Shown piece by piece: positions 1-13,007 of a DNA stretch of 13,007 nucleotides (its first letter is position 1; each line of letters begins with the position of its first letter). The translations under genes and the position numbers were made by a program. Below the pieces are notes generated by a model. The model worked only from the letters and a program-made list of their open reading frames with translations, was not told the DNA's origin and ran no database searches. This stretch comes from a virus, in UHGV virus genome UHGV-0203085; one strand, written 5' to 3'.

Positions 1-26
1 ATTATATCCATGTGTGCAAGTAAATT

Positions 27-200
27 TTATTGGTGTGTCACAGAGTCGATGAATGCCAGTAACTCGCGCTCCGCTTCTGCCTCCCTTTCTTCTAGCGACC
101 AGGTAGCGGATTCTTCTGTTGCCGTTGCTAAATCGGTTTTCACATCAATCATCGTGTCGATTAACGTTATTAGTCGTTCAGCCTGTTCTTTAGTAATCAT
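27..200 (-). CDS. hypothetical small protein, 57 aa (below the 60-aa cut-off of the supplied track)
   Basis: ATG at 198-200 (minus) with GGAG about 8 nt upstream; 57 codons to TAA (plus 27-29); translation MITKEQAERLITLIDTMIDVKTDLATATEESATWSLEEREAEAERELLAFIDSVTHQ. The overlapping + ORF 10..261 is low-complexity and is probably its antisense shadow. Confidence 0.35.
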   Translation of the reverse strand: MITKEQAERLITLIDTMIDVKTDLATATEESATWSLEEREAEAERELLAFIDSVTHQ

Positions 201-334
201 TGTTGCATCTCCTGCAATAGTCGCTTCGATTGTTGCGTTTGGTGAAAGTGTCGCTTTTTGACGACACTAATCTAAAGTTGTACGCTGCTACACAGCAGCG
301 TAAGTCACTCAGTAAAATCCCAAACTATTGAACA

Positions 335-529
335 TCACACTTCCGGCGGCTCTGGTAACGGCATCCAGTACGCCACGTCGCAGCTCCGGATGTTTGAATT
401 GTTCTCCATAAAACTATCCCAGCAGTAATTTTCATCAAGCCATTTAACTCCCACACTCTCACCATCGGTTACCAGCACATCGCTGAAATGCTCCGGCATC
501 CGCTCACTACACTTAATCCACTTACTCAT
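335..529 (-). CDS. DUF551-like phage protein, 64 aa
   Basis: ATG 527-529 (minus) preceded by GAGGTGA; N-terminal WIKCSERMPE and C-terminal YWMPLPEPP match the remembered DUF551 pattern (family assignment from memory, no search run). Confidence 0.6.
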   Translation of the reverse strand: MSKWIKCSERMPEHFSDVLVTDGESVGVKWLDENYCWDSFMENNSNIRSCDVAYWMPLPEPPEV

Positions 530-572
530 ATCTCACCTCATATTCATCGCAGTTCGCACACCAGCTTTCCAC

Positions 573-827
573 TTACCTTTCTGAGTAAGTAGATAGCATA
601 TCTAAGATCGATACATCAGACTTCGGAGAATCGCATTTTAACGCTTCATGCGTCTGATTCTTGTATGAACGCGAGAGCAGCACTTCGTCAGCACGAGATT
701 TGTACTGCACACCAGCTTTCCACGCCCGCCACGCGAGACGCGTCTTAACGTTCAGGTACTCTTTCTTCGAACCCTTGTTAACCGGCAGACCCTCTACGAC
801 GGCCCAACGTTCAAATGCTTCTCTCAT
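573..827 (-). CDS. hypothetical protein, 84 aa
   Basis: ATG 825-827 (minus) with GGGG about 7 nt upstream; protein-like composition; the + ORF 661..864 is antisense to it. Confidence 0.5.
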   Translation of the reverse strand: MREAFERWAVVEGLPVNKGSKKEYLNVKTRLAWRAWKAGVQYKSRADEVLLSRSYKNQTHEALKCDSPKSDVSILDMLSTYSER

Positions 828-1024
828 AACTCAACCCCCAGAACTTCACATTCACTGCGTCTAATGAATAGCGGTCCGTCATCAGTTTCGACTATAAACC
901 CATACCCATGCACTTCTACAACCTCAAACTCGTCCCCGACGGCCACGCCGAAATGGTAGAGCGGGTGGTCATCATAGGGCGCTGGTTGAAAACTGTTTAC
1001 CTATGTTATTCGGATCCTCATAAC

Positions 1025-1228
1025 TCATCTCCTACGTCTAACATTGTGCCCAGGGGCATAACACCGTGTTCTGTCTTTGCTTATCGACCAACCGTCAGAC
1101 CTTGCTTGCCTCGCACACTCAGACCACGTCTCCCCGGTATACTCCCCCGAACACGGCATACGCCATTGTTTTGAATTACACTCATCGCAATCACAATAGA
1201 GATGTACAGCATATCCCGCGGCTACCAT
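1025..1228 (-). CDS. hypothetical Cys-rich small protein (possible zinc-binding), 67 aa
   Basis: ATG 1226-1228 (minus) with GGGGG 5 nt upstream; cysteine cluster CDCDEC, PC, and C-x-APGH suggests a metal-binding ribbon. Confidence 0.45.
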   Translation of the reverse strand: MVAAGYAVHLYCDCDECNSKQWRMPCSGEYTGETWSECARQARSDGWSISKDRTRCYAPGHNVRRRR

Positions 1229-1288
1229 ACTAACCCCCGCAACGCGTGCACCACATAAACGGCGCTGACAATTAAAATGAACGGGTAA

Positions 1289-1492
1289 TTATCCACGGCA
1301 ACCTCCCTCAGAGTCGTCGGCACGAGCATCGTGGTTCGATGCCGTTCGTATGGAGCGCAGGAGTTTAACCAGCATCTCCGGTGATGATGTTGAAATTTCT
1401 TCACCATCAAGTGTGACAATCGCATATCGTTTAATTGTGAAATTAACTTTTATTAATCTATGATGTTTAAGTTCTTCAAATAATTCTTCCAT
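1289..1492 (-). CDS. hypothetical protein, about 67 aa
   Basis: ATG 1490-1492 (minus) with GGGG about 8 nt upstream; overlaps the TGA stop of the upstream gene (TGATG junction); the track ORF starts one codon earlier at GTG 1495. Confidence 0.4.
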   Translation of the reverse strand: MEELFEELKHHRLIKVNFTIKRYAIVTLDGEEISTSSPEMLVKLLRSIRTASNHDARADDSEGGCRG

Positions 1493-1689
1493 CACTTCGC
1501 CCCTTTGAATTTAAAATTGTTGCCGATGAGTTCTAAATATTCTGCGCTTACAGTTGCATGTCCACCAGTAAATACATTGCGAAGTTTACAAATAGAGGAA
1601 CTGCCTCTGTTGTTGGTGGAAAATACGGAGTACAAACATCCCGACTTTTTACTACGGACCAACTGACCCTTCTTAAACATAACCTTCAT
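1492..1689 (-). CDS. hypothetical small protein, 65 aa
   Basis: ATG 1687-1689 (minus), second in-frame ATG 9 nt downstream; first gene after promoter-like element D; N-terminal FKKGQLVRSKKSG resembles small KOW/DUF2158-like phage proteins (weak, from memory). Confidence 0.5.
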   Translation of the reverse strand: MKVMFKKGQLVRSKKSGCLYSVFSTNNRGSSSICKLRNVFTGGHATVSAEYLELIGNNFKFKGAK

Positions 1690-1707
1690 TCCTATGTCAC
1701 GTTTCGA

Positions 1708-1744
1708 TAAGTGAATAGTAACCTATTATGTTGGGGGCGTGCAA
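1708..1744 (-). promoter_or_regulatory. promoter-like element D (minus orientation): TTGCAC, 18 nt, TACTAT, then conserved TTCACTTA
   Basis: Minus-strand reading cTTGCACgcccccaacataataggtTACTATtcactta. It has 3 mismatches to the 28-bp core shared by elements A and B, and its downstream 21 bp (cgtttcgataagtgaatagta, plus 1700-1720) matches the window-end copy C with one mismatch. It lies about 20-50 nt upstream of the ATG at 1689. Confidence 0.4.
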
Positions 1745-2039
1745 GAGAATAGTTACGATGCCGTTGTGATTCTTTCGTTTAATGGGGTAGCGAGCGAAAC
1801 GAAACGAACGTGGTGCCGAAGGCACCAAGAGTGAGTGAGTGAGCTTGCGGTTCTAACCTGCGGCAAATCAGTAACTTAGATATTTTGGCGGGAATTACAA
1901 TAGACTTTGGGCCTCCCAAACGCGCCAGCGAGCCTCACTCCACACGCTACACGTGCTCGTTTCGCCTGCCGCGCGCCGCGGTCGCTTGTTCATACTTCAC
2001 AAGCTCAGGTGGAGCTTAGCATATTTTTAGTGAAAAGTC

Positions 2040-2055
2040 AACTATTCGAATAGTT
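2040..2055. promoter_or_regulatory. perfect 16-bp palindrome AACTATTCGAATAGTT (putative operator)
   Basis: Exact inverted repeat in the divergent region between elements D and A. Its half-site ACTATTC is the same heptamer found at the -10 region of elements A, B, C and D, and GAATAGTT recurs at 1747-1754. Confidence 0.4.
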
Positions 2056-2107
2056 TATTCCAACATTTACAATTGAGCGGAATAACTGGAATACGTAAAC
2101 AAATAGT

Positions 2108-2161: not shown

Positions 2162-2407
2162 ATGCAGGAGTTACCTAGTTTCGAACGTGAGTTCATTAGC
2201 GGTTTCATACCGGTTACTAATTTCAGTATACAGGATTTATTTGACTTAAGAGAAAACGGCAGACTTTGGGTGTGCAATGCCAAGGATGTTTCAAACGCTA
2301 GAGTATGGAACTTTAGTTTAATGCGCCGCCCGAACAAATCTGGTGAAGGTGCTGTTGGCATGGATTTGTTGCGGCGCAAAGGTAAGCTATTCATGAGAGT
2401 GCAGTAA
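2162..2407 (+). CDS. hypothetical protein, 81 aa (moron-like cassette A)
   Basis: ATG 2162 with AGGAGG 6 nt upstream; own promoter-like element upstream and an intrinsic terminator immediately downstream; opposite in orientation to the flanking minus-strand genes. Confidence 0.6.
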   Translation: MQELPSFEREFISGFIPVTNFSIQDLFDLRENGRLWVCNAKDVSNARVWNFSLMRRPNKSGEGAVGMDLLRRKGKLFMRVQ

Positions 2408-2435: not shown

Positions 2436-2897
2436 TCATTCTGGCTTCGTAACCTTCGCCGCTCTACTTACCACCTCTACACCATCGGCATCAGTAACTT
2501 TAACGAAGTATTCACCGACAGCATTAACCGTCAGAGAAAGAGTCTCTTCCGGGGCATTTACTACTTCCTTTCCGTCCTTGTACCAGGTCAGCACATACGG
2601 TGCTTTGCCTGCCTTAGCCTCGACAGTGATGATTGCGCTGCCGTCTGCCAGTTCCGTGTCTTTCGGTTGCACGGAGAAATACACGTCGCCCGCGTCCGCC
2701 AGATACGGAATTTCATAAAGCATACCCGCCGCCGGTAGTGCAATACCAGTTTTATCCGCAAACGGCATATCGTCTACTGGTGTACCGAGTACACTTTCAT
2801 CTTCAATAAATACCACATTCTCGCCGGAGCCAGACACGCGGGCGTACTGGACTACGCGACGCGACGGCACATCAGTTACTTTGAAAAATCCCATCAT
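2436..2897 (-). CDS. Ig-like (BIG-type) domain protein, 153 aa, probable virion-associated or decoration protein
   Basis: ATG 2895-2897 overlaps the TAA of the upstream head morphogenesis gene (TAATG coupling). C-terminal YVLTWYKDGKEVVNA...TLSLTVNAVGEYFVKVTDADG has the alternating pattern of an Ig-like beta sandwich. Confidence 0.6.
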   Translation of the reverse strand: MMGFFKVTDVPSRRVVQYARVSGSGENVVFIEDESVLGTPVDDMPFADKTGIALPAAGMLYEIPYLADAGDVYFSVQPKDTELADGSAIITVEAKAGKAPYVLTWYKDGKEVVNAPEETLSLTVNAVGEYFVKVTDADGVEVVSRAAKVTKPE

Positions 2898-4756
2898 TAT
2901 TCCCCTTTCAGATAATCAGCAACACGTTTATCGAGTTCCGCCATCTGCTTAAGTGTCAGCGGATTCCCGAAACCATCTACAGATATTACGCGAAACTCTT
3001 CCGGCGATATACCGCTGTTACGGAAAATCTTACCTCGCACCGGGCCGAGTGCTTCATCCACGAACCATGCCGGTTGTTGTTCAAGGAACTCGTAGTAAGT
3101 GGTGTCCGCGCTTACCTGAGTACCGCCGTCCGCACCCTTAGCTGCGCGTTTCGCTCCTTTATCGAGGAAGTCGAACTCTGAACTGATCACAGGCGCGGTT
3201 GTTGAGCGGCAGTTATGTGCTATAATTCCATTAGCAAGATACCAGTTCTGTTCATTTTCGAGGTTATAAACATGCCCGCAAAAATCAGCTTCACTAAAGA
3301 CCAAATCGACAACATCATCAAGCTCTACACCGACGGCATCGGACCAGTTGAAATCGGAAAGATTATCGGCGTTTCGTGTAGTCCAGTCATACGCGTTCTC
3401 AGAGAGAACGGCGTTACCATTCGCGGAGGCAGCGACGCTATGTTCATCCGAATGGCTAAAGCTACTCCCGAGGAGCGCCTCGCTCTCTCCGCCGCGGCGC
3501 ATGAAGCTGTCCGAGGGAGAAAGGCCGACCATGCTGAACTGCTTCGCAGAGCCAAAGCCAGGGAGGGAGTCATCAACGCCGGCAGTCACTGGGAGTTCCT
3601 TGTCAATGATTTGCTTATTCAGTCCGGACTTGACTTTATCCCAGGAAAGGCGGTCGACAAGTACAATCTCGACTTCGCCGTCGGTACCGTCGCCGTGGAA
3701 GTCTTCGGGGGAGGTTGGGCTTGTACTGACCGCCGCCGGATTGACCGTTACATTAGCCGCACTAAACAAATCGGAGAACTTGGCTACAACGTTGTGTTCC
3801 TTATGCTTGAGAGAGAGCGCAGAGTCCTTAGCGCACACGAGCTTGTCACCTACATTGAGAAGGCCGGAAGCAACCCAACCACTGGCGGTCAATACCTGGT
3901 GGTTTGGGGTGATAGACAAGGTGCGACCGGACTTTGTAGAGACATAGACTATAGTGCCTTTGTACGCCCGTTTAAAAATGTTAGAAACAGGGCTACCGGT
4001 AGATACTACAGTGTCCCCAAGTAAACAATTAGGGTGGGCCGGAGGCATCGGCCCTTTACCAATTTCCCACGTCATCCCGTCCCTGGCTCTGCAAATCGTA
4101 CTGGTACGACTATCAAGCGTTGACACCCACTCGTATTTCTCGATGATGTCGTCGTTCTGGCGGTACGTCTCGTTGCGGGCCTCGTTGGATACGTGAGCCA
4201 GCGCGGTGCGGATTACGGTAGCTGCATTACGTTCAGAGATGTCCGCCAGTCCACCAGCGCCTACGACATTCTTAACAATCTGCCGTGTCGTCTGGCCTTG
4301 GACAAAGCCCATCTTAACGCCGGTTACCAGGCGCGATACTTCTGTTTCACCCCAGCCCGACATCAGCTTAGTGAAGTCAACCGGCTTGTCGCTTAATGAT
4401 AAGGGTTGAAACTCGGCAGCGGCCCATACCTGTTCCGCGGTAGGCGTAATAAACTCGGCGTTAACGTTGGTGGCCAGCGTTTTTACGTTCCACTCTGCCT
4501 CATAAGCCGCCAGTTCTTTAAGGTCTTCTGTCAGTTTTGTTTGCCAGTCACCCGTAAGTCCCGCCAGTGCTTCTTCGAGGTCGCGTAACAGCTTATTTAG
4601 CCGCGCGGTACTACGACCGTCGTCGCCGAATAACAGCACCTGCCGTTTGATTTCGTCCCGCATCTCCTTAAGGAACGGCGCGAGGTCTTTCACTTCACCG
4701 GATGCGGTGCGTTGCAGCCATATCTGGTGGCTGATTAGAGATGTAAGTAAGCTCAT
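2897..4756 (-). CDS. head morphogenesis protein (Phage Mu F / SPP1 gp7-like) interrupted by an intein
   Basis: Long minus ORF; best start is ATG 4754-4756 with AGGAGGG 3-4 nt upstream (track ORF begins at TTG 4813 with no RBS). The N-extein ends ...WVSTLDSRTSTICRARDGMTWEIGKGPMPPAHPN, which I recall as the Mu F signature preceding HPNCRC. The gene lies directly downstream of the portal gene, as expected by synteny. Confidence 0.8.
   Translation of the reverse strand: MSLLTSLISHQIWLQRTASGEVKDLAPFLKEMRDEIKRQVLLFGDDGRSTARLNKLLRDLEEALAGLTGDWQTKLTEDLKELAAYEAEWNVKTLATNVNAEFITPTAEQVWAAAEFQPLSLSDKPVDFTKLMSGWGETEVSRLVTGVKMGFVQGQTTRQIVKNVVGAGGLADISERNAATVIRTALAHVSNEARNETYRQNDDIIEKYEWVSTLDSRTSTICRARDGMTWEIGKGPMPPAHPNCLLGDTVVSTGSPVSNIFKRAYKGTIVYVSTKSGRTLSITPNHQVLTASGWVASGLLNVGDKLVCAKDSALSLKHKEHNVVAKFSDLFSAANVTVNPAAVSTSPTSPEDFHGDGTDGEVEIVLVDRLSWDKVKSGLNKQIIDKELPVTAGVDDSLPGFGSAKQFSMVGLSPSDSFMRRGGESEALLGSSFSHSDEHSVAASANGNAVLSENAYDWTTRNADNLSDFNWSDAVGVELDDVVDLVFSEADFCGHVYNLENEQNWYLANGIIAHNCRSTTAPVISSEFDFLDKGAKRAAKGADGGTQVSADTTYYEFLEQQPAWFVDEALGPVRGKIFRNSGISPEEFRVISVDGFGNPLTLKQMAELDKRVADYLKGE
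3212..4027 (-). mobile_element. intein, 272 codons (Cys1 ... His-Asn, +1 Cys)
   Basis: In-frame insertion beginning CLLGDTVVS (block A; Cys codon = plus 4025-4027), with TLSITPNHQVLT (block B, T-x-x-H) and GWVASGLLNVGDKLV in the N-terminal Hint part. The C-terminal Hint part is ADFCGHVYNLENEQNWYLANGIIAHN, followed by +1 Cys (plus 3209-3211). The central region is S/A/D/G-rich with no LAGLIDADG, HNH or GIY-YIG motifs. Confidence 0.75.
3272..4024 (+). CDS. antisense-nested ORF, 250 aa: HTH plus DUF559/Vsr-like (PD-(D/E)xK-type) putative homing endonuclease
   Basis: ATG 3272 with GAGG about 8 nt upstream (an in-frame ATG at 3215 gives the 269-aa track ORF). N-terminal HTH-like IGPVEIGKIIGVSCSPVIRVLRENGV. 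Central block WEFLVNDLLIQSGLDF...YNLDFAVGTVAVEVFGGGW...RRRIDRYISRTKQIGELGYNVVFL matches the DUF559/Vsr pattern (D-F ... hEhDG.W ... R ... GY.V) as I remember it. The ORF is bounded by antisense stops at 3203-3205 and 4022-4024, so it spans the intein to within 2 codons. Confidence 0.55.
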   Translation: MPAKISFTKDQIDNIIKLYTDGIGPVEIGKIIGVSCSPVIRVLRENGVTIRGGSDAMFIRMAKATPEERLALSAAAHEAVRGRKADHAELLRRAKAREGVINAGSHWEFLVNDLLIQSGLDFIPGKAVDKYNLDFAVGTVAVEVFGGGWACTDRRRIDRYISRTKQIGELGYNVVFLMLERERRVLSAHELVTYIEKAGSNPTTGGQYLVVWGDRQGATGLCRDIDYSAFVRPFKNVRNRATGRYYSVPK

Positions 4757-4800
4757 AAGCCCTCCTGTAGTATCGCCAGTGTAACGCATAAAAATAATAT

Positions 4801-4836
4801 TTGCAGACACCAATATAATAGGGTACTATTCAGTTA
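4801..4836 (+). promoter_or_regulatory. promoter-like element B: TTGCAG, 17 nt, TACTAT, then conserved TCAGTTA
   Basis: The 28-bp core (4809-4836) is identical to element A. It lies in the divergent intergenic region between the head morphogenesis start (4756, minus) and the + ORF at 4861. Confidence 0.45.
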
Positions 4837-4860
4837 AACGACAACGAGGAGGAAGAAAAC

Positions 4861-5016
4861 ATGATTAATGCTAAAGAAGAGTTGCTCGCCCATCTGGATG
4901 GTAAAGATGTAGTTAAATGCGCCTGGTTTGCAGATTATGACGCAGATTACGGTTTCGTTAAGGGAGTAAATGGCTCCTGCGGGAGAATTACTCTCGCGGA
5001 GAATGGGAAAGCCTAA
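4861..5016 (+). CDS. hypothetical small protein, 51 aa (moron-like cassette B, first ORF; not in track)
   Basis: ATG 4861 with AGGAGG 8 nt upstream; translation MINAKEELLAHLDGKDVVKCAWFADYDADYGFVKGVNGSCGRITLAENGKA; TAA 5014-5016 overlaps the next ATG (TAATG). Confidence 0.45.
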   Translation: MINAKEELLAHLDGKDVVKCAWFADYDADYGFVKGVNGSCGRITLAENGKA

Positions 5017-5180
5017 TGGCTGCGCTTGATTTTGAATATCACAACGGTTACGGCGGTCAAAACTTCTTCGGCGTAATTTGGTACGAAGATGGTACATGGT
5101 CTTCTCGCGGAGAATACGATGGTTCTGAATGGTGGGAATATAATGCCGTGCCAGATGTGCCAGGAGAACTTAAGCGCTAA
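5016..5180 (+). CDS. hypothetical small Gly/aromatic-rich protein, 54 aa (moron-like cassette B, second ORF; not in track)
   Basis: ATG 5016-5018 coupled to the upstream stop; translation MAALDFEYHNGYGGQNFFGVIWYEDGTWSSRGEYDGSEWWEYNAVPDVPGELKR; TAA 5178-5180 followed 4 nt later by a terminator hairpin. Confidence 0.45.
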   Translation: MAALDFEYHNGYGGQNFFGVIWYEDGTWSSRGEYDGSEWWEYNAVPDVPGELKR

Positions 5181-5184
5181 AATT

Positions 5185-5210
5185 AAGGCCCCTTTCGGGG
5201 CCTTTTCTTA
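5185..5210. terminator. bidirectional intrinsic terminator (stem AAGGCCCC / GGGGCCTT, loop TTTC)
   Basis: Same stem sequence as the terminator at 2412-2434. Followed by TTCTTA on the plus strand and by AATTTTA on the minus strand. It lies between the + cassette (stop 5180) and the portal stop (5208-5210). Confidence 0.6.
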
Positions 5211-6701
5211 TTGCTGCTGTTGGTCTTGTGGAGATTGTTCCTGTCTTGCTGTAGCAGGAATCTCCCCTGCCACCTGAGTGGCAGCACCTAACGGCAGCGG
5301 TGTATCCTCGATAGCGTTCTGAATATCCTCGTCAGTCCAGTCGGTTACTCCAGCTTTACGCAATGCCGCGTAGTAAGCGGTAGCCGGTAACAGGCCCGCG
5401 TTAATATCAGCCATCCACTGTGCGCGGTCCTGAGCGGTCATCGGTTGCAGGAAGAACTCCATGTTCAGCTTGAACTCAATTTCTGTGCCTTCACGCAACC
5501 CCAGCATAGCAGCCACCCAGCGCAACGCATCGGTATACGCCATGCTTACGTTACGTGCGATTGTTGCCATAACAGACGTATCGGCACCACGTTGCAGGCG
5601 GGCTGATTCAGCGGTTATTTGCTGTGTCGGGGTAATAAGCTGCGCCCCAATCTGGATCGCCTGATTCTCTTTATCCAGCATGTTCTGTTTGGCAAGGTTG
5701 TTCTCTCCTGCCTGAACCAGAAACGCATTGCCGCCGTAACCGATGTTATGACCTGAACGCGACCCCATGCGAACGCCGTGGGGGTTGGCTTCCGCCCACT
5801 GTTCCATGCTCATGTTCTCGCCCGGGGCGATGAACAGAGTGGGTTGACCTACAACGAAGCTGGACTCCTCATTGTCCGCGCTGTTGCGAAAATGCCCGAT
5901 ATTAAGCTCGGCCAACGGCAGCAAAGGCGCATCGTCAATGGTTGCATCGTTGTTGCTTGCCCCGATGAACGTGAACGGGATTTTGCCGCGTAACTGTTCG
6001 CCGAGTTCCGGGAATATCTCGATTACTTCGTCCTGAGCGCCACCTTCGGCATCGAAGCGGTAAATGCGCTGACGATAGCGATCTTCGATAATGTCAAGGA
6101 CGCGGTACTGTTCACCAAATTTTGTTTCGAACTCTGCGCCTGGTTCCGAATATTCCCATACCTCACGCAGCACGACCATTGTCACGCGGTTCACTGAACC
6201 GATACGGGTCAGGCGCCAGTTGATGATGTTCTCTGCGGTGTAAAACGCGATGACCGGGTTTAATAACCCCGCGTTCTGTTCTGCTGCCGTCGCTGCGGCT
6301 GTCTCCGGCGCATCCACCAGCAAGCCTCCACGCCCCACTGAGTCAATCTCCATCAGCGTATCCTGCGCGTGCTGCCACAGCCCGACACCAGAACCGTCTG
6401 CATTGCGTAACAGGTATTCCAGTTCAGGCGGGATAATCTGTTCAGGGTCTTTGCGCATCACCGACCCCACCATCCCCGCCAGGGTACGTTTAGTGAAGTT
6501 GTAGCAGATAGCGCCGTTTTCGTATTCTTCCTGGCGCTGTGCTGCGTAGACCGGGTCGGGTTCATTCTTCCCGACGTTGCGCAGGTAACGGATAAGGTCG
6601 CCTTCCAGAGCGTGGCGGACCTTCTGCCATTTATCGAAGTGATGCAGCCATTCCCGGTGTTTTGTCTTAACACCCTGATTCTGACCGTTCATAGTTAACA
6701 T
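5208..6701 (-). CDS. portal protein (putative), 497 aa
   Basis: ATG 6699-6701 with AAGAGGA 7 nt upstream; size and position immediately after the large terminase and before the Mu F-like gene fit the usual terS-terL-portal-MuF synteny. No motif-level confirmation is possible by eye. Confidence 0.65.
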   Translation of the reverse strand: MLTMNGQNQGVKTKHREWLHHFDKWQKVRHALEGDLIRYLRNVGKNEPDPVYAAQRQEEYENGAICYNFTKRTLAGMVGSVMRKDPEQIIPPELEYLLRNADGSGVGLWQHAQDTLMEIDSVGRGGLLVDAPETAAATAAEQNAGLLNPVIAFYTAENIINWRLTRIGSVNRVTMVVLREVWEYSEPGAEFETKFGEQYRVLDIIEDRYRQRIYRFDAEGGAQDEVIEIFPELGEQLRGKIPFTFIGASNNDATIDDAPLLPLAELNIGHFRNSADNEESSFVVGQPTLFIAPGENMSMEQWAEANPHGVRMGSRSGHNIGYGGNAFLVQAGENNLAKQNMLDKENQAIQIGAQLITPTQQITAESARLQRGADTSVMATIARNVSMAYTDALRWVAAMLGLREGTEIEFKLNMEFFLQPMTAQDRAQWMADINAGLLPATAYYAALRKAGVTDWTDEDIQNAIEDTPLPLGAATQVAGEIPATARQEQSPQDQQQQ

Positions 6702-6713
6702 TGAATAATCCTC

Positions 6714-7964
6714 TTAAAGTGCGAAAGTCACCGGGATGTTGATTACTGGTTTAACCACCGGCATCTCATAAACTACAGGATAGCCGAGAGCATCCGCCAT
6801 ATGGTCGATGATGCCGTCTTTAGCTGGCTCTCCGTTATCGTCGTATGCCTGCTGCTCCAGCGTCTTCGCTATCTCAGGGCATAAGTGGTCGTTAACCCAC
6901 AGCTTACCTTTTTCCAGTGCGGTATTCACGGCTAAAACACGGTCTTTAACCGGAGGGTTGGCGGATTTAGCGCGAACATCGAACCCGGCCTGCTGGAGTA
7001 ATGCAATATCAGAGATTGACGCTGAGTTGGTTTTGCGGTTCTTGCCGCTGGCGTCAGGGTAGACGACAATACGGTGTCCTTGCGACTTCCACTTCTCGTT
7101 AATTACACGCACGGTGTCCGGCGTATCGAACAGGCCTTTCAGTTCTGCTACCGCGTGCCAGCCGTCTTTACGTTGCACATACACGGCGCTTGCGTTCTTC
7201 GTAACGTTGAAGTCCTGCCCGATGTACAGTGTGTCACCAGGTTGAATTGTCTCTTTGCTGCGGTGCTTACGTCGGTCATAGGCGTAATACACGCTGCCGG
7301 ATGTCAGGTTGACGAACTCACCATTAAGATACGCGTTAATCAGTTGCGCCGGGTAAGTCTCGGTCAGTGAGCTGATGTAATCCTGCGGCAGGAATCGCGC
7401 ATTCTCGTGTGTGGAAGCCTGCACCATCGAGTAACTCGGCGTCGGATTCTCTTTGAACTTGGCGTAGACGAACTTGAACCCTTCCGGCGTCGTGGTGACA
7501 GAGATGTGGTTAATTACACCTGGTATAACCAGACGCATACGGGCTACGATTTTGTTCCACGCCAGCTCAGCTTTCTCGCGGCTCAATACGTCCAGCTCAT
7601 CCACGACCGCAGCCGCGATTTTGAAGCCGACTATCGAGCCGGGGTTATCCATCGAGCGGCAGATAACAGTTCCGAGCACCGTCTTACCGCGAGTAACCAC
7701 GACTTCTTTGTCGCCGGATTTAACCAGCACATCAAGGCCGAGGAGGTTAGCCGCTTCCTCGAATGTAGGGTAGAAGATGTCGCGGATAGCCGGGTATGTC
7801 GGACCGAAGTAGCCCAGGCGCGTACCTGGGTGCTTGAGTATAAACGTAAGCAGGTCCAGGCAGCCAACAAATGTCTTACCACTACCGAAGCCCCCGACAT
7901 AGGCCTTGTATTTGTTATCGCAATTCAGGAACAGTGCCTGTGGTGCGGATAGCTGAATACTCAT
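6714..7964 (-). CDS. terL: terminase large subunit, 416 aa
   Basis: Walker A ATPase motif YVGGFGSGKT near the N-terminus (residues about 23-32); ATG 7962-7964 overlaps the stop of the upstream gene (ATGA); followed by the portal gene. Confidence 0.85.
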   Translation of the reverse strand: MSIQLSAPQALFLNCDNKYKAYVGGFGSGKTFVGCLDLLTFILKHPGTRLGYFGPTYPAIRDIFYPTFEEAANLLGLDVLVKSGDKEVVVTRGKTVLGTVICRSMDNPGSIVGFKIAAAVVDELDVLSREKAELAWNKIVARMRLVIPGVINHISVTTTPEGFKFVYAKFKENPTPSYSMVQASTHENARFLPQDYISSLTETYPAQLINAYLNGEFVNLTSGSVYYAYDRRKHRSKETIQPGDTLYIGQDFNVTKNASAVYVQRKDGWHAVAELKGLFDTPDTVRVINEKWKSQGHRIVVYPDASGKNRKTNSASISDIALLQQAGFDVRAKSANPPVKDRVLAVNTALEKGKLWVNDHLCPEIAKTLEQQAYDDNGEPAKDGIIDHMADALGYPVVYEMPVVKPVINIPVTFAL

Positions 7965-8506
7965 TCCTCCACCTCGCCCATGTTCGTTGTTACGATTTTA
8001 CCTACAGGCTCCGCAACACTGAAAATAATCTCAGTAGGTGCTGTTTCTTCTGTCGATTCAACTGGTTTCTCTTTTCCGAGGCCCAGCTTCGCGGCAGCAA
8101 ACGTAGCGGAGATGCCAGCGGCCCCCGTCTCGGTGAAATAGGCCTCTTCCAGAGCCTGTGCTGTCTCCCAGGCTTCTGCAAATGCGGGAATCTCGCGCAG
8201 CCACAGCTTAATAATCGGGATAGTGACGCCGATGTGTAGAGCAAAGCGGGCCAGTGATGGTGGCTTATCCTGAATCAGCGGGCGTTCATCGCCCTTAGAC
8301 GTAGGCACAAGCTCCCACGACGTGCGGTCGAAGAACTCGATTAATTCGTCGCAATAGTCCGGGTCCCACAACGCGGCGGAATTACGGGATGATTGATAAA
8401 GGCTCTGTTTACCGCGCGGTCGTCTACGGCGACGGTTTGCGCTAACAGCTTCTTCATGTGCAGCTTGCACCACCTCTGGCGATGGCTGCTTGAGTTTCAG
8501 CTTCAT
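7961..8506 (-). CDS. terS: terminase small subunit (putative), about 181 aa
   Basis: Immediately upstream of and translationally coupled to terL. Best start is ATG 8504-8506 with AAGGGGA 4-5 nt upstream (track ORF starts at GTG 8545). Basic N-terminal region (RRRRRPRGK) and a helical core are consistent with a small terminase; assignment is mainly by position. Confidence 0.5.
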   Translation of the reverse strand: MKLKLKQPSPEVVQAAHEEAVSANRRRRRPRGKQSLYQSSRNSAALWDPDYCDELIEFFDRTSWELVPTSKGDERPLIQDKPPSLARFALHIGVTIPIIKLWLREIPAFAEAWETAQALEEAYFTETGAAGISATFAAAKLGLGKEKPVESTEETAPTEIIFSVAEPVGKIVTTNMGEVEE

Positions 8507-8523
8507 AGAATCCCCTTGCATAT

Positions 8524-8579
8524 GCGTCTGACCATCAGAGCGCACCAGACGCGCCCTACGCGTCTAAATGGATTATATA
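8524..8579 (-). promoter_or_regulatory. terS leader: TATATAAT box (no -35) followed by two mutually exclusive GC-rich hairpins
   Basis: Minus strand reads cccttaTATATAATccatttAGACGCGtagggCGCGTCTGgtgcgctctgatggtCAGACGCatatgcaaggggattctATG. The heptamer GCGTCTG/CAGACGC occurs at plus 8524-8530, 8546-8552 and 8559-8565, allowing hairpin 8547-8565 or hairpin 8524-8552. Confidence 0.3.
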
Positions 8580-8600
8580 AGGGGATTGGGAGGGATGTAC

Positions 8601-8623
8601 AGAAAAGCCCTCCGTAGAGGGCT
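8601..8623 (-). terminator. intrinsic terminator for the minus-strand operon (stem AGCCCTC / GAGGGCT, loop CGTA, then UUUUCU)
   Basis: 7-bp stem at 8606-8612 and 8617-8623; on the minus strand it is followed by TTTTCT (plus 8600-8605). Located after the last small minus-strand ORF and before the terS leader. Confidence 0.55.
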
Positions 8624-8725
8624 TGTATCAGTTATATAGGCCGTGTCGTGGTGCTCTCTTACCGTCGCCGCCGTAATGGTCATTAGCTACGGCGATAGCC
8701 CAGGCGTTAGGGATGATTAGTAGTC

Positions 8726-8905
8726 TCATTTTAAGTATCTCAACAGGGCATCAGCGATACCCGATGTTACCAGGCCAAAAAACATAGGCCACCAGATGTA
8801 TCTGGGTAGATTGGTAAATGTTTCTGGCTTAGACCAGAAAGCCATTAAAAACGCGAACCAAAACACCATATAACTAATGTTGCTAAGTAATTCTAAAATA
8901 CTCAT
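8726..8905 (-). CDS. small hydrophobic membrane protein, 59 aa (not in track)
   Basis: ATG 8903-8905 overlaps the TGA of the upstream gene (ATGA); AGAGGAGA 7 nt upstream; translation MSILELLSNISYMVFWFAFLMAFWSKPETFTNLPRYIWWPMFFGLVTSGIADALLRYLK has two hydrophobic segments. Confidence 0.4.
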   Translation of the reverse strand: MSILELLSNISYMVFWFAFLMAFWSKPETFTNLPRYIWWPMFFGLVTSGIADALLRYLK

Positions 8906-9138
8906 TCCCCGCTCTCCTCTTTAGCAATGCGTTGCTCAGTTTTAGTGATACCCCGGCGCGTGAATAACACCGGGCTTGTTTTAACGTGCGTCATCAGACG
9001 GTTGTTATAAATTACATGACGCTCGCAATCAACGTCTTTGCTGTACTTGGCAATCGTCATTTCGTTGATGCCGGTTTGTCTGCATGTCTCCGCCATCGTG
9101 CCATATTCTTTTATCAGGTTCGGAATGCTGGTAATCAT
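8902..9138 (-). CDS. small HTH DNA-binding protein (putative regulator), about 78 aa
   Basis: ATG 9136-9138 overlaps the TGA of the upstream 56-aa ORF (track ORF starts at GTG 9162); helix-turn-helix-like segment MAETCRQTGINEMTIAKYSK. Confidence 0.5.
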   Translation of the reverse strand: MITSIPNLIKEYGTMAETCRQTGINEMTIAKYSKDVDCERHVIYNNRLMTHVKTSPVLFTRRGITKTEQRIAKEESGE

Positions 9139-9305
9139 CCTAAGAAATTCCTCGTTGTCCACATCGCATTAGGATATTTGCTATCGCGGTCCTGCACTAC
9201 GGCAATCATGTTACCGCGTTGCACCAGGCAGAAGTGCCGCTGTTGCTCGCCGTTATAGCGACGCCAGATTGCTTCTTCGATTGCTGCATTGATGTCACTA
9301 AACAT
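9135..9305 (-). CDS. hypothetical small protein, 56 aa (not in track)
   Basis: ATG 9303-9305 with GGGG 5 nt upstream; translation MFSDINAAIEEAIWRRYNGEQQRHFCLVQRGNMIAVVQDRDSKYPNAMWTTRNFLG; stop coupled to the next ATG. Confidence 0.35.
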   Translation of the reverse strand: MFSDINAAIEEAIWRRYNGEQQRHFCLVQRGNMIAVVQDRDSKYPNAMWTTRNFLG

Positions 9306-9388
9306 GTTTACCCCACAGAAACCCGACTAACAGCCCAAGGAAGTAACTAAGAACAACCAGACCGATAACCACCTCTGGACTCATACTC

Positions 9389-9571
9389 TCACCCCACTAT
9401 CTCATCGCCAAGCCACGCCGTCTCACGTATATCGTCAACCACACATGCGGCGTGCTCACGGCTAATTGCAAAAATGTAGAAGCTGAACTTCTTCCCGTCG
9501 GCGTCGATGTGGTTAACCGAGTAAGGCTTCCACAGGACGCCATCAATTACTACTGGCTCAGGCGCTTTCAT
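9389..9571 (-). CDS. hypothetical protein, about 60 aa
   Basis: Track ORF 9389..9580 (GTG start); the internal ATG 9569-9571 is the more likely start; protein-like sequence. Confidence 0.4.
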   Translation of the reverse strand: MKAPEPVVIDGVLWKPYSVNHIDADGKKFSFYIFAISREHAACVVDDIRETAWLGDEIVG

Positions 9572-9761
9572 CGTCAACACCGTAATCGAACTCAGGGGAA
9601 AGGAGTAGCTTCTGTTCTTCTTCCTTCAATTTCCCGAGTAACAACTTAAACGCCTCCAGTTGAAACTCTCCGTTAATCGACAACTGCCCGCCTAACGTCT
9701 GTTTCTCTGACTCAAGCACCAGAATACGACGCTCAAGTGATGCGATTGTGATTTTAGGCAT
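9558..9761 (-). CDS. hypothetical coiled-coil-like protein, about 67 aa
   Basis: Track ORF 9558..9770 (GTG start); ATG 9759-9761 with AGGTGG 4 nt upstream is the more likely start; LERRILVLESEKQTL...KLKEEEQKLL looks helical. Confidence 0.4.
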   Translation of the reverse strand: MPKITIASLERRILVLESEKQTLGGQLSINGEFQLEAFKLLLGKLKEEEQKLLLSPEFDYGVDDESA

Positions 9762-9939
9762 TGTCACCACCTTTGTTCAGGTTGAAGCGGTTAATCAGTT
9801 CACGGCGGGTCTCATAAAGCGACTCAACCATCTGCTCAGCTACCGCGATTTTAGTATTAAGGACGTACATCACGTGTCCGATGTCTACGCCGCTGTTAAC
9901 GGCCTCTACCATCATCTTTTCGTATTCGCGGTCAGTCAT
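9754..9939 (-). CDS. hypothetical protein, 61 aa
   Basis: ATG 9937-9939 overlaps the TGA of the upstream ORF (ATGA); protein-like sequence. Confidence 0.45.
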   Translation of the reverse strand: MTDREYEKMMVEAVNSGVDIGHVMYVLNTKIAVAEQMVESLYETRRELINRFNLNKGGDNA

Positions 9940-10094
9940 TCTTTACGCTCTCCCCACATGCGATTGAGATACTTGTTCTTGTCCGGCCCCGGGAAACTGT
10001 TACGTTTCATCAGCTCCTCACGTGTCGGGAACGGGGTGTGACTGACTTTACGGCCTACTCGTAATGGTTGGCTTACTGGACCTTGTTCGCTCAT
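9936..10094 (-). CDS. hypothetical small protein, 52 aa (not in track)
   Basis: ATG 10092-10094 with AGGAGA 7 nt upstream and an ATGA overlap with the upstream stop; translation MSEQGPVSQPLRVGRKVSHTPFPTREELMKRNSFPGPDKNKYLNRMWGERKE. Confidence 0.35.
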   Translation of the reverse strand: MSEQGPVSQPLRVGRKVSHTPFPTREELMKRNSFPGPDKNKYLNRMWGERKE

Positions 10095-10240
10095 TTCTTC
10101 TCTCCTGCATAAGCTGCTTTCAGTGCCTTCATCGCCGCAGCCCAGAACGAGTCTGCAGGAATGCTTCCACCCATGTTACTAACGGCGATGCGTGCCATCA
10201 GTTGCGCGTCATTAAATGCTTCGATATCTGTGATTTTCAT
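10091..10240 (-). CDS. hypothetical small protein, 49 aa (not in track)
   Basis: ATG 10238-10240 with GGAGA 7 nt upstream; translation MKITDIEAFNDAQLMARIAVSNMGGSIPADSFWAAAMKALKAAYAGEKK; the RBS context GGAGAGAAGAAATG is repeated at the next gene. Confidence 0.35.
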   Translation of the reverse strand: MKITDIEAFNDAQLMARIAVSNMGGSIPADSFWAAAMKALKAAYAGEKK

Positions 10241-10394
10241 TTCTTCTCTCCACATTTGCACGGTTTAAGCCCATTTTTGTAGTAGAAGGCGTCGCCACCT
10301 TCTTTCAACCATCCGTTTTGATGCTTGTCGCGACAAGTTATTATGTTCTTGTATAAAATATCTAATTCTTGTCTGCTAAGTTCACTTTTTGGTT

Positions 10395-10616
10395 TCACAC
10401 ATATTCCTCCATAAAATCTTTAATACTTACTTTCTTTCCGCAAGTAAGATAGTTAATAACCGCCTGCTCAGCCATCTCAAATGTCCACCCGCGGTCAAAC
10501 ATAATAGTTTGCATATAACTAGATTTAACCTCAGACGCTATAAGAGCTTTAACTTTTTTAACAGTCCATTTCTTATTTACTAAGGAGGCGTATTTACTTA
10601 TGTCTTCTACTTTCAT
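10395..10616 (-). CDS. hypothetical protein, 73 aa
   Basis: ATG 10614-10616 with GGAG about 9 nt upstream; first gene downstream of the sigma70-like promoter at 10650-10678. Confidence 0.5.
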   Translation of the reverse strand: MKVEDISKYASLVNKKWTVKKVKALIASEVKSSYMQTIMFDRGWTFEMAEQAVINYLTCGKKVSIKDFMEEYV

Positions 10617-10649
10617 TTTCTCTACTCCGTTCTCGTTGTCGATGAAGTA

Positions 10650-10678
10650 AATATAATAGGGTCGTAGGTAATAGTCAA
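10650..10678 (-). promoter_or_regulatory. sigma70-like promoter (minus): TTGACT, 17 nt, TATATT
   Basis: Minus-strand -35 TTGACT (plus 10673-10678) and -10 TATATT (plus 10650-10655) with a 17-nt spacer; located between the terminator at 10700-10732 and the ATG at 10616. Confidence 0.4.
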
Positions 10679-10699
10679 CTAGTCATTGCAGAAAATAGA

Positions 10700-10732
10700 T
10701 AAAAAAAATCCCGGCTGGGTCAGGGCCGGGAT
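10700..10732 (-). terminator. strong intrinsic terminator for the lysis operon (8-bp stem ATCCCGGC / GCCGGGAT then eight U)
   Basis: Stem at 10708-10715 and 10725-10732 with a 9-nt loop; on the minus strand it is followed by TTTTTTTT (plus 10700-10707); 65 nt downstream of the lysozyme stop. Confidence 0.65.
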
Positions 10733-10796
10733 AAAACTGGAGAGCAGAGGGATGGAACAGGAGGTTATTTAAGTATCGTCGGATTAGTCTTAGGTG

Positions 10797-11285
10797 TCAA
10801 CCTTTCACCGCACGCCCGATAGCCTCAGCCTCCTGCCACGGTTTACCGTCGAACAGCGCCAGACGACCGGCGGTACGGCGGCGCAGGCCAAGCAACGGTT
10901 TGCCGTTCTGGTTGATGAACCGCGCCAGCTTAGCCCGCAGCGTCGCAATATCGCCCGAGCGCAACGCCTTACCTGTTCCGGTAGTAGCGGCAATCACACC
11001 CGCGCCTGCGTTATAGACCAGGTCGCACACTGCATCGAACTGTGCTTGTGTCAGTGAATGGTTCGCTGCTGCGTCAACCGCGGCTACGGCCTTAGCCATA
11101 TCGCGATTCAGTAACAGGAGACCTTGGCCTGGGGTGATGGTCTTGCCTGGAGTTACATCTGGCCCGTAATGACCGTAACCAATAGTCAGGTACTTCTCGT
11201 TCGGTGTAGCACGATACACAGTTCCACGGAATCCCTCAAACGCGGCGGTAAAATGCAATCCATTATCTGAAATATTTCGAGACAC
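10797..11285 (-). CDS. endolysin, GH24 phage lysozyme (P22 gp19-like), about 162 aa
   Basis: Motifs ISDNGLHFTAAFEGFRGTVYRA...YLTIGYGHY...GKTITPGQ...LTQAQFDAVCDLVYNAGAG...GLRRRTAGRLALF follow the P22-type lysozyme pattern from memory. The likely start is GTG 11283-11285 with GGAGGG 7 nt upstream; the track ORF extends further upstream without an RBS. Confidence 0.8.
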   Translation of the reverse strand: MSRNISDNGLHFTAAFEGFRGTVYRATPNEKYLTIGYGHYGPDVTPGKTITPGQGLLLLNRDMAKAVAAVDAAANHSLTQAQFDAVCDLVYNAGAGVIAATTGTGKALRSGDIATLRAKLARFINQNGKPLLGLRRRTAGRLALFDGKPWQEAEAIGRAVKG

Positions 11286-11535
11286 GCTTATTCCCTCCGT
11301 ATGACAGCCACGCCTGGCGAATCTGGCGTAGCGCAACTAATGTGATTAACGTCTCAGGCAACGTGGGTGACATGCTGCCCTGTAACAGGTGGATACATCC
11401 GGCGGCGCAGACAATAGCGGTCAGGATATAGAGCACCCGACCAAATAGCCCGTCGTCAACGCTGGGATGATACACATTAAACAGCGATGTCCCCCCGATT
11501 GCCAGCATACCGCCGAACCAGAATAACTCATTCAT
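11263..11535 (-). CDS. second holin-like membrane protein, 90 aa (holin or antiholin candidate)
   Basis: ATG 11533-11535 overlaps the end of the upstream holin gene (ATGAATGA); two hydrophobic segments (FWFGGMLAIGGTSLF and VLYILTAIVCAAGCIHLL) and a basic C-terminus; the track ORF 11263..11715 is an N-terminally over-extended version. Confidence 0.45.
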   Translation of the reverse strand: MNELFWFGGMLAIGGTSLFNVYHPSVDDGLFGRVLYILTAIVCAAGCIHLLQGSMSPTLPETLITLVALRQIRQAWLSYGGNKRVSKYFR

Positions 11536-11836
11536 CTGTACCCCCTCGACGTGCGATGTATTCCCCAGCGACGATACCGGAGAGACGGGAATAGATAGGC
11601 ATCCAGAGAATAGCGATAATGAAGCCCAGGCCAGCGATTTCACGGTCGCCCGTGATGCCGAACCATTGAGCTGCGAGAGGTGCACCAAATACGGCGCAAG
11701 TGAAGCCGGTTGCAATAAAGCAGAAGCCGTCTATGGGGCCGGAAATAACGGACTTATGTTGTCGTAGCCCGATTACCCCTCCGGCGAGTGCGGCAGCGAG
11801 AAGCCACCCCGTCACTGTTTCAGTAAATTTATCCAA
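11528..11836 (-). CDS. holin (putative, three hydrophobic segments), 102 aa
   Basis: TTG start 11834-11836 with GGAGGA 6 nt upstream; hydrophobic helices and a charged C-terminal tail; first gene of the holin-holin-lysozyme cassette. Confidence 0.55.
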   Translation of the reverse strand: MDKFTETVTGWLLAAALAGGVIGLRQHKSVISGPIDGFCFIATGFTCAVFGAPLAAQWFGITGDREIAGLGFIIAILWMPIYSRLSGIVAGEYIARRGGTDE

Positions 11837-11842
11837 GATGAA

Positions 11843-11880
11843 TCCTCCAGGTGCGTATTAAGTATGCAGTAACTGGAGGA
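11843..11880 (-). promoter_or_regulatory. RBS-sequestering hairpin in the holin leader (anti-SD UCCUCCAG pairs with SD CUGGAGGA)
   Basis: Perfect 8-bp inverted repeat, plus 11843-11850 tcctccag and 11873-11880 ctggagga, separated by 22 nt; on the minus-strand mRNA the downstream arm is the holin Shine-Dalgarno. Confidence 0.35.
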
Positions 11881-11911
11881 TACCACGGGTAGGAATTATC
11901 CTAATAACGGT

Positions 11912-12205
11912 TTATTTATGTCTCCAGATGTATTGTCGTCTCTGCGGTTTCGTCGGAATATCATCGTACCCCAGCGATTTCCAGTAATTAAATAGCCGAT
12001 TAGCGATAGCAGCGCGTTCTGGTGTTTTAAACTCACCGAGATTCACGGCCTTCCCATTCTGGAATCCACAGGCGCGGACAGCTTTGCGTCGGGCCTGAAC
12101 CTCTGGGTACAGCGCGTTACCCCGGCGTTTGTATATTCTGGTGTTCGCCCTCGGTGACAGCGGGGCAAGGCCACTTCGTTTCAGGATGTCAGTTGCGAGT
12201 GTCAT
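11912..12205 (-). CDS. putative DNA-binding protein with AP2-like (or integrase arm-like) motif, 97 aa
   Basis: ATG 12203-12205; segment RACGFQNGKAVNLGEFKTPERAAIANRLF resembles the G-K-x-x-x-L-G-x-F-x-T-x-E-x-A-A core of AP2 / HNH-associated DNA-binding domains (from memory). Confidence 0.45.
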   Translation of the reverse strand: MTLATDILKRSGLAPLSPRANTRIYKRRGNALYPEVQARRKAVRACGFQNGKAVNLGEFKTPERAAIANRLFNYWKSLGYDDIPTKPQRRQYIWRHK

Positions 12206-12408
12206 TATTTCTCATGTTTACCAAGTCGCTTAGGTGAGCAGATAGCGCGTACCTCTGAATCGTTAGGCTTGTCACCCTGAAACAGAAAGTGCGCGTTCTC
12301 CGCGGCGCGTGCCGCTGACTGGCACGCCTCCATCGAGTAAAACGTTTCTGATGCCGTGAGGTGCATCTGGCCCGCAGACAACACCCAGATAAATAAGATG
12401 CTGGTCAT
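12205..12408 (-). CDS. small protein with N-terminal signal/anchor-like hydrophobic segment, 67 aa
   Basis: ATG 12406-12408 overlaps the upstream stop (ATGA); N-terminus MTSILFIWVLSAGQMHLTAS is hydrophobic; two Cys in the mature part; no lipobox. Confidence 0.45.
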   Translation of the reverse strand: MTSILFIWVLSAGQMHLTASETFYSMEACQSAARAAENAHFLFQGDKPNDSEVRAICSPKRLGKHEK

Positions 12409-12848: not shown

Positions 12849-12966
12849 ATTCTTCGCTCACTCCGTTATAGACGCCGTTGTAATCACCGTCGCAGATGAA
12901 CGGGTAGAGCATATCTTCGTACTCGTCCTGCAACTTACCCAAAGTTACTTCACTATAGTCTTTCAT
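12838..12966 (-). CDS. hypothetical acidic micro-protein, 42 aa (not in track)
   Basis: ATG 12964-12966 with GGAGAG 8-10 nt upstream; translation MKDYSEVTLGKLQDEYEDMLYPFICDGDYNGVYNGVSEEYEQ; first ORF downstream of element C; its stop overlaps the next gene start. Confidence 0.3.
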   Translation of the reverse strand: MKDYSEVTLGKLQDEYEDMLYPFICDGDYNGVYNGVSEEYEQ

Positions 12967-12990
12967 CTTCTGTCTCTCCTCTCGTTTCGA

Positions 12991-13007
12991 TAACTGAATA
13001 GTAGTCT
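12991..13007 (-). promoter_or_regulatory. promoter-like element C (minus orientation), truncated by the window edge
   Basis: Minus strand reads ...agacTACTATTCAGTTAtcgaaacg; the 13-bp core TACTATTCAGTTA is identical to elements A and B, and the 21 bp at plus 12983-13003 match element D (1700-1720) with one mismatch. The -35 region would lie beyond position 13007. Confidence 0.3.

Follow-up and report, generated by a model that had tools for sequence, protein, structure and literature searches.

The 13,007-nucleotide viral sequence UHGV-0203085 (hereafter the window) contains, at positions 1756-2036, a stretch of about 280 bp that an initial annotation made from the sequence alone had described as non-coding. 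Comparative analysis supports a conserved, covarying structured RNA on the minus strand of this stretch, preceded by a promoter of host type, and we consider it rather probable that this element is a transcribed, structured cis-acting leader. The window derives from a K1G-like virulent siphophage of E. coli that belongs to the genus Kagunavirus (Guernseyvirinae). The element represents a new RNA family, its general kind being familiar, and has no match in Rfam or in the literature that we searched.

A covarying RNA fold on the minus strand

We built a covariance model, R1, from a structure-annotated alignment of 19 sequences. In the window it matches positions 2006-1895 on the minus strand only (96.3 bits, E ~1e-23). 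The model scores 90-136 bits in every Kagunavirus locus, again on the gene-sense strand only, and 37-45 bits in Jerseyvirus. Single-sequence folds concur on a 5' hairpin followed by a long rod, the base of which is formed by CCG-C-GG[N]GCG pairing with CGC[N']UU-CGG. The GC-rich hairpins that the initial annotation had noticed are parts of this one larger fold rather than separate hairpins.

Lineages diverge strongly in the centre of the element yet retain hairpins at the same positions. The apical hairpin of the rod reads CACG/CGUG in copies of type A1, CACGU/ACGUG in A2, CGGGAC/GUCCUG in B, CGGUGC/GCACUG in C, CGGGGC/GCCCUG in D and GUGCC/GGCAC in E, and in Jerseyvirus it is GGGCGC/GCGCCC or GGGCGU/ACGCCC. 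While the helices covary, the internal loops, the rod base (CCGCGG...UUCGG) and the 3' tail are conserved in sequence.

We then quantified covariation in an alignment of 39 distinct sequences fitted to R1. Standard pairs occupy 94.6% of the cells, compared with 82.3 ± 0.6% after shuffling and 29-45% when the partners are slid by 1-3 columns, and 15 of the 29 pairs changed on both sides. The covariation score was 0.313 versus 0.112, a value reached by none of 500 shuffles. Single pairs occur in several Watson-Crick types, for example CG20/UA14/AU3 at one pair and AU16/UG7/GC6/CG5/UA3 at another. A structure-blind MAFFT alignment concurs, with 92.1% paired versus 85.5%, and 30-40% when slid; there, one rod-base pair is CG in 11 sequences, UA in 6 and AU in 2, with zero mismatches. 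The strand can be read from the same data: we counted 115 G.U cells versus 11 A.C cells, and standard pairs make up 94.6% on the minus (gene-sense) strand versus 84.8% on the opposite one.

Two candidates on the plus strand were set aside. RNAalifold found little on the plus-strand MAFFT alignment, in which the hairpins were misaligned, and suggested a long-range pair GCUC[C/G]...[G/U/C]GAGC. A plus-strand small RNA (-10 TACAAT at 1897-1902; hairpin at 2001-2017 with a T run) was rejected: a usable -10 is missing at this place in late copies, the hairpin and the T run are not contiguous, and the balance of G.U and A.C favours the minus strand.

A conserved extended -10 promoter precedes the RNA

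Judged by its pattern of conservation, the site at 2041-2013 on the minus strand is an extended -10 sigma-70 promoter, which presumably fires, with transcription beginning at a G at about position 2006. Its -35 is near TTGACA, the spacer measures 17 nt, and a TGn precedes a hexamer that retains T1, A2 and T6. Among 37 distinct copies, A158-C161 and A163 of the -35 are invariant and A162 is conserved in at least 90%, with one copy reading TCGACT. The TG and the hexamer TAAGCT are invariant in the same 37 copies; by contrast, n can be C, G or A (transcribed strand), and about 8 positions of the spacer are variable. The same layout is found in 53 copies of the element within the loci that we fetched, and the homologous site in the Jerseyvirus Ent1 is TAGACT-17-TGtTACGCT. 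In both of its native contexts the promoter faces the downstream genes.

Two copies per genome, ahead of early and late operons

Both copies of the element are present in nearly every complete Kagunavirus contig fetched. The late copy adjoins the 5' side of an operon of spanin, scaffold, capsid, neck and tail-tube genes, and the early copy lies 5' of the leftward early operon. The whole genome of the Jerseyvirus Ent1 holds the late copy only, which suggests that this copy is the ancestral one and that the early copy arose by duplication within Kagunavirus. Interiors are also swapped between copies at times: in one locus (L013), a copy in late context has an interior resembling that of some early copies.

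Beyond Kagunavirus and Jerseyvirus we found no copy: a pattern scan of bacterial genomes gave only chance matches, of which 0 of 80 passed the model, and unrelated viral contigs likewise yielded 0. Rfam 15 gave zero matches in the window at gathering thresholds, and a search of 1650-2200 with E up to 10 returned just two chance-level matches, to mir-759 and H19_3. A scan for tRNA and tmRNA found none. In the literature on promoters or RNA sequencing (RNA-seq) of Kagunavirus, Guernseyvirinae and Jerseyvirinae, we found no description of the element.

The window's single element fuses an early and a late copy

The whole window matches 484 records. The stretch with its flanks matches about 186 phage records at 80-99% identity; for the stretch itself, about 20 phage records show 92-94% identity, and 181 records contain its right half. 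In complete relatives, 1658-2041 is the early divergent region, between the first leftward early gene and a helix-turn-helix/helicase-primase module (Shashou 37884-37502, 93.8% identity). Window positions 1898-2093 have a second match, in the intergenic region from the Hoc-like gene to the spanin genes (Shashou 5715-5521, 86%). The order in Esher4 is the late copy, window 2438-12782, about 300 bp, and then window 1-2041 with the early copy at its end. Capsid, tail and replication genes are absent from the window.

The window is a closed circle of 13,007 bp that corresponds to the genome segment between two direct copies of the element, since its last 28 bases and first ~20 together rebuild one copy of a repeated promoter motif and relatives align straight over the junction of its end and start. 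In an IMG/VR contig the two copies lie 13,044 bp apart. The single element of the window is accordingly composite: by sequence identity it is a chimera in which an early and a late copy have been fused into one. Positions 1898-1964 are early-type, sharing 97-99% identity with the nearest early copies (type A1), 84-87% with early copies of other types and ~52% with late copies, and positions 1965-2041 with the right flank are late-type, 96-99% identical to late copies. None of the fetched loci covers the span 1658-2500, in which the join lies. A second, independent metagenome contig, OIHY01001419.1 (5.2 kb; locus L279, join at 2137-2280), carries the same early-to-late join and is Esher4-like, with 97% identity on one side of the join and 92% on the other. 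What the initial annotation took for a divergent region is thus a junction that arose through collapse or recombination of two copies of the element, and not a native intergenic region. As the origin of the circle we favour an assembly effect, the repeated choice by assemblers of the short loop in the figure-of-eight graph of a two-copy repeat; a real subgenomic product, shed by the phage through recombination between the copies, is the less favoured alternative.

Terminator-like hairpins downstream of the element

The hairpin at 1827-1811 is kept in the closest early copies, and other lineages have at the same place a different GC-rich hairpin, GGGUGGGC-UAAC-GCCCACCC, with no U run directly 3' of it. 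The analogue in late copies is GCCCAGC-UUUAAG-GCUGGGC followed by UUUACUU, 194 nt past the start and just 5' of the spanin ribosome-binding site (Shashou 5782-5801); the Jerseyvirus hairpin at that site is GCCCGGC-UUAC-GCCGGGC. The hairpins at 1827-1811 and at Shashou 5782-5801 both pass a simple terminator scan, and their U tracts are interrupted (CGUUCGUUUCGUUUCG and UUUACUUAUC, respectively). Beside the hairpin, the number of GAGT units does vary between isolates, a question that the initial annotation had raised: there are 3 in the window and most relatives, and 6 in phage Golestan (locus L010). The late operon holds further terminators, one 3' of the capsid gene and, in Ent1, one annotated 26 nt 5' of the scaffold gene. 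A consensus scan of the late operon found no good sigma-70 promoter ahead of the post-capsid terminator.

The flanks of the hairpin, (CUCA)n and the (UUUCG)n tract, show complementarity to both rod arms (1795-1860 versus 1925-1975, minus-strand RNA), and early copies of type E have matching complementarity with other sequences (ACGCAACGC / GCGUUGCGU). This pairing of rod arms with hairpin flanks, striking by eye, was not retained: it is unproven, and its duplex energies do not consistently improve on those of shuffles (z -0.6 to -3.2, mononucleotide shuffles).

A proposed cis-acting leader

In the reading that we favour, which we consider probable, the element heads a minus-strand transcription unit and forms a folded cis-acting leader that would control read-through, transcript stability or both. 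We favour a cis-acting leader because of the host-type promoter, a structured RNA that begins at about +3, conserved loops alongside covarying helices, the fixed spacing of the terminator-like hairpin, the length of the operons and the terminators inside them, and the presence of two paralogous copies. Host sigma-70 RNA polymerase would initiate at the extended -10 promoter (2041-2013), and the first ~110 nt of the transcript (2006-1895) would fold into the 5' hairpin and the long irregular rod. The polymerase would then reach the terminator-like hairpin (1827-1811) about 195 nt from the start. The leader may act in cis on its own transcription complex or transcript, determining the share of transcription that gets past the proximal hairpin and past the terminators within the long operons, and shielding the 5' end. 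We infer both the end of the RNA and all of its function.

The most specific version of this mechanism would be protein-independent processive antitermination like that of HK022 put. Antitermination as such is a tentative suggestion, made by analogy, that we regard as possible rather than likely. Rather unlikely as a whole is the broadest form of the idea: a new class of protein-independent processive antiterminator RNA of virulent Guernseyvirinae, put-like in function and unrelated to put in sequence, which would carry host RNA polymerase through the terminators of the late operon and in Kagunavirus also of the early one, and whose two copies double as a recombination substrate that sheds a 13-kb circle.

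The putL and putR sites of the lambdoid phage HK022 are cis-acting antiterminator RNAs (PMC9378689). Like put, the element occurs in each genome as two paralogues, both located in the transcribed leaders of major operons, and has an architecture of two stem-loops with bulges and internal loops, with terminators downstream in the operons. It starts at about +3 of the predicted transcript, much as putL begins within a few nt of the start of its sigma-70 promoter. Unlike put, it spans ~110 nt rather than ~70 nt, and it combines a short hairpin with a long rod instead of forming a V of two similar stems. It also belongs to virulent Guernseyvirinae and not to lambdoid phages, and one of its copies serves late genes.

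The PR'-6S RNA-tR' arrangement of phage lambda offers another comparison. In both cases a strong host-type promoter is followed by a non-coding transcript of ~195 nt, here a predicted one (lambda 6S RNA is 194 nt long), up to a terminator-like hairpin, directly 5' of late genes that start with lysis functions, here the spanins, and continue with structural genes. The difference is that here the leader itself is a conserved and covarying structure, which is not a defining trait of lambda 6S RNA. Lambda uses the Q antiterminator; neither a Q homologue nor a Q-binding element was found here, no search having been aimed at them.

Several observations weigh against the proposed leader. Its folding energy is unexceptional given the base composition, with z = -1.0 in the window and -2.1 in a late copy, so that the case for structure is comparative, not thermodynamic. 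Two copies, L021 and L025, fit a local CCGC/GCGG hairpin, maintained by one compensatory change, better than the long-range rod base, and the element may therefore adopt alternative folds. The -10 hexamer has just 3 of its 6 bases in common with TATAAT, which is why the consensus scan did not list the promoter. The downstream hairpins, with their interrupted or weak U tracts, may not terminate. In early copies a second promoter motif follows the hairpin, ahead of the genes, which have no obvious need of the leader in that context. The main text of the one RNA-seq paper on a Kagunavirus is silent on intergenic regions, promoters and small RNAs. As for put, an unfiltered search of the complete HK022 genome with R1 found nothing near PL and PR, where putL and putR lie, and gave only a 17-bit partial match at PR' and a 6-bit match. 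By this one test the element is not a put homologue, and the put-like reading draws on analogy: our claim is that the element may work like put RNAs, not that it belongs to their family.

Two of these points have details of their own. L025 and L021, which occur in different contexts, share a paired departure at columns 41 and 116 of alignment A3, from G to U in the rod base and from U to C in a position that is not its partner; Watson-Crick pairing of the rod does not explain it, and it fits the local-hairpin alternative or a sequence exchange between copies. In the 17-bit match at the HK022 late promoter PR' (locus L139, 36892-36959), only the 5' hairpin aligns, overlapping the -10 region, and both promoters begin TTGACTTTT. 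We regard this match as coincidence, not homology, given that it involves the 5' hairpin only and lies in a different register relative to the promoter.

Alternative readings

The stretch is non-coding. The view in the initial annotation that it holds no plausible open reading frame (ORF) is borne out in substance: short mechanical ORFs exist and none is conserved. Those overlapping the stretch comprise frames of 43-48 amino acids with TTG starts and a 32-amino-acid ATG ORF on the minus strand (1993 to 1895). That they encode a small protein is barely credible, even though frames of 32-48 amino acids are open on both strands and the annotators of a few genomes called ORFs here (GenBank). Across 39 distinct copies no ORF is conserved in frame or length. 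Indels of 1 and 2 bases between copy types shift or truncate every frame, and the ATG ORF ranges from 17 to more than 32 amino acids, with unrelated sequence past codon 7, and is missing in type E and Jerseyvirus. The annotated hypothetical proteins of 35-36 amino acids in Shashou, gp056 and gp007, lie on opposite strands of the two copies, the substitutions track base pairing and not codons, and the small ORFs of the stretch have no Pfam or PHROGs match.

Among the roles that the initial annotation proposed for the stretch, a small RNA is the one that our evidence supports, insofar as a conserved, covarying minus-strand RNA with its own promoter is present. A stand-alone small RNA gene of ~195 nt, ending at the hairpin and acting in trans on host or phage targets or binding a protein, would account for the promoter, the structured body and the constant spacing of the terminator-like hairpin (196 and 194 nt), the whole present as two paralogous copies with strong host-type promoters. 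Its single-stranded motifs (UUCGGAAGGGCC, UCUAUUG and the GAGUG loop) are conserved while the helices covary, which suits a binding surface, and the genes downstream of early copies have a separate promoter. We nevertheless consider such a gene unlikely: the U tracts of the hairpins are poor, no target was found, no search having been aimed at one, and around late copies the interval from the terminator of the Hoc gene to the spanin, scaffold and capsid genes showed no further promoter motif, so that transcription from the promoter of the element must continue into them. An element acting as DNA is less likely still, whether it served for recombination, for protein binding or as a replication origin (transcription-primed or with a single-strand initiation hairpin), with the hairpins forming in DNA. 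The early copy does adjoin the helicase-primase module in native genomes, the transcript strand is G-rich by eye, early and late copies have exchanged sequence (L013), and two independent contigs are joined through the element. Transcription-primed origins such as T4 oriF and oriG or ColE1 RNA II likewise combine a promoter with a structured transcript, G-rich by eye in our case, and the early copy resembles them in lying near replication genes. Unlike them, the element has no AT-rich unwinding block, nor does it contain iterons, and its probable ancestral copy, the sole one in Jerseyvirus, is found within the late structural region and has the same orientation as the genes. The conserved tandem G.U pairs and the strand-specific pairing suit RNA better, as G.T pairs destabilise DNA hairpins, and a DNA element would leave the promoter-type conservation directly upstream unexplained. 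The replication origin suggested in the initial annotation has no finding in its support, the ancestral copy being in the late structural operon, far from replication genes, and the suggested protein-binding arrays apply to the flanks, with their palindrome and repeated promoter motifs, and not to the stretch itself. The cis-acting leader remains the reading that we prefer.

Neighbouring sites and genes

The stretch is bounded by a repeated promoter-like motif (1708-1744) and a 16-bp palindrome (2040-2055), and the repeats and hairpins listed in the initial annotation all appear in the sequence where it had placed them (Table 1).

Table 1. Features of the element and of its surroundings in the window
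Feature	Position	Strand	Remark
-35 hexamer TTGACT	2036-2041	minus	nearly invariant across copies
Extended -10 TGcTAAGCT	2013-2021	minus	TG 2021-2020, variable n 2019, hexamer TAAGCT 2018-2013; 17-nt spacer to -35
Structured RNA, ~112 nt	1895-2006	minus	match of covariance model R1, from the putative start at ~2006
SL1, 5' hairpin (GCUUGU...ACAAGC)	2004-1999 with 1989-1984	minus	
Long irregular rod	1981-1916	minus	single-sequence folds and covariance
Apical hairpin CACG/CGUG of the rod	1955-1952 with 1946-1943	minus	
Conserved 3' tail of the structured RNA		minus	...GGAGGCCC..UCUAUUG
GC-only inverted repeat CCGCG-cgc-CGCGG	1969-1981		
Join of early- and late-type copies	1965-2041	none	stretch common to both copy types; early-type left of 1965, late-type from 1965 rightwards
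Spacer from structured element to hairpin region, ~48 nt	1847-1894	minus	partly homologous between early and late copies: ..AAGUUACUGAUUUGCCG..
(GAGT)n/(CTCA)n microsatellite	1829-1846	none	5' flank of the hairpin in the transcript
Microsatellite (GAGT)3GAG	1829-1843		
Terminator-like hairpin UGGUGCC-UUC-GGCACCA	1811-1827	minus	196 nt past the putative start; flagged by terminator scan
Hairpin GGTGCC-gaa-GGCACC	1812-1826		
(CGAAA)2 and CGAACG	1795-1810	minus	on the minus strand, interrupted U-rich tract CGUUCGUUUCGUUUCG 3' of the hairpin
Repeated 'phage promoter' motif (TTGCAC..CCAACATAATAGGnTACTATTCA)	1708-1744	minus	directly 5' of the first early gene (1492-1689, minus); neighbour, not part of the element
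Further copy of the motif	2108-2143	plus	
Further copy of the motif	~4801-4836	plus	
Further copy of the motif	12980-13007 joined to 1-20	minus	
16-bp perfect palindrome AACTATTCGAATAGTT	2040-2055	none	abuts the -35; late-copy context only
Small early genes	1-1689	minus	
Hoc-like immunoglobulin-domain protein, intein-containing Mu-F-like head morphogenesis protein, portal, TerL, TerS, small genes, lysis genes, further early genes	2436-13007	minus	

Each of the four window copies of the ~35-bp motif (TTGCAC..CCAAnATAATAGGnTACTATTCA) stands directly 5' of a gene start, with AATAGT/ACTATT words on its flanks. PHIRE analysis has reported a motif consensus of tgAATAGTa-ccTATTat (PMC9825357), also given as tgAATAGTa-ccTATTat-T (PMC9825357, PMC7203180); the element is unreported in both papers. 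Like the element, the PHIRE motif is a repeated regulatory sequence of these genomes. It flanks the stretch on both sides (1708-1744 and 2108-2143), and a short CTATT/AATAG word is common to the motif, the 3' tail of the element and the palindrome. Unlike the element, which measures ~150 bp and occurs twice per genome, it is a ~35-bp DNA motif with ~7 occurrences per genome and no RNA structure. A phage RNA polymerase gene is not annotated in the records of relatives that we examined (e.g., Shashou).

The palindrome adjoins every late copy and is absent from early copies. On its opposite side lies a divergent promoter-like site, TTTACA-18-AATAAT with a TG in Shashou and Ent1 and TTTACA-18-AATACG in the window (2066-2095, plus strand), and the palindrome is probably an operator between two back-to-back promoters. 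In Shashou and Ent1 this second promoter faces a bidirectional terminator only ~15-30 nt away and would yield a very short RNA.

In the window and in GZMU_E2010, the late divergent promoter region has received an inserted gene of 81 amino acids that carries a promoter motif of its own. This accessory ORF (2162-2407, plus strand) has a strong ribosome-binding site and lacks a Pfam match; some relatives possess it (GZMU_E2010), and Shashou, Esher4 and OIHY01001419.1 do not. Further along, the Mu-F/SPP1 gp7-like head morphogenesis protein (2897-4813, minus strand) has 638 amino acids versus ~347 in Shashou and Esher4, and contains an intein splicing domain (Pfam PF14890, residues ~271-534, insertion at ~3203-4024).

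Discussion

Hundreds of phages of the genera Kagunavirus and Jerseyvirus have been isolated and sequenced with a view to therapy and food safety; on their gene regulation, the genome papers offer only the promoter motif predicted by PHIRE. The element adds a concrete candidate for a regulatory part, a well-supported structured RNA with a host-type promoter ahead of the operon for the most abundant virion proteins, duplicated ahead of the early genes. Its helices and loops are open to direct mutation and hence testable.

The element also bears on how sequences of these phages are read. The small ORFs annotated across it are probably not genes, and two direct copies of ~145 bp explain 13-kb "circular genomes", spurious or real, as well as chimeric contigs in metagenome collections. 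To our knowledge, few RNA-only antitermination systems have been described. If the leader does control read-through, it would be one more such system, and one that comes from virulent phages.

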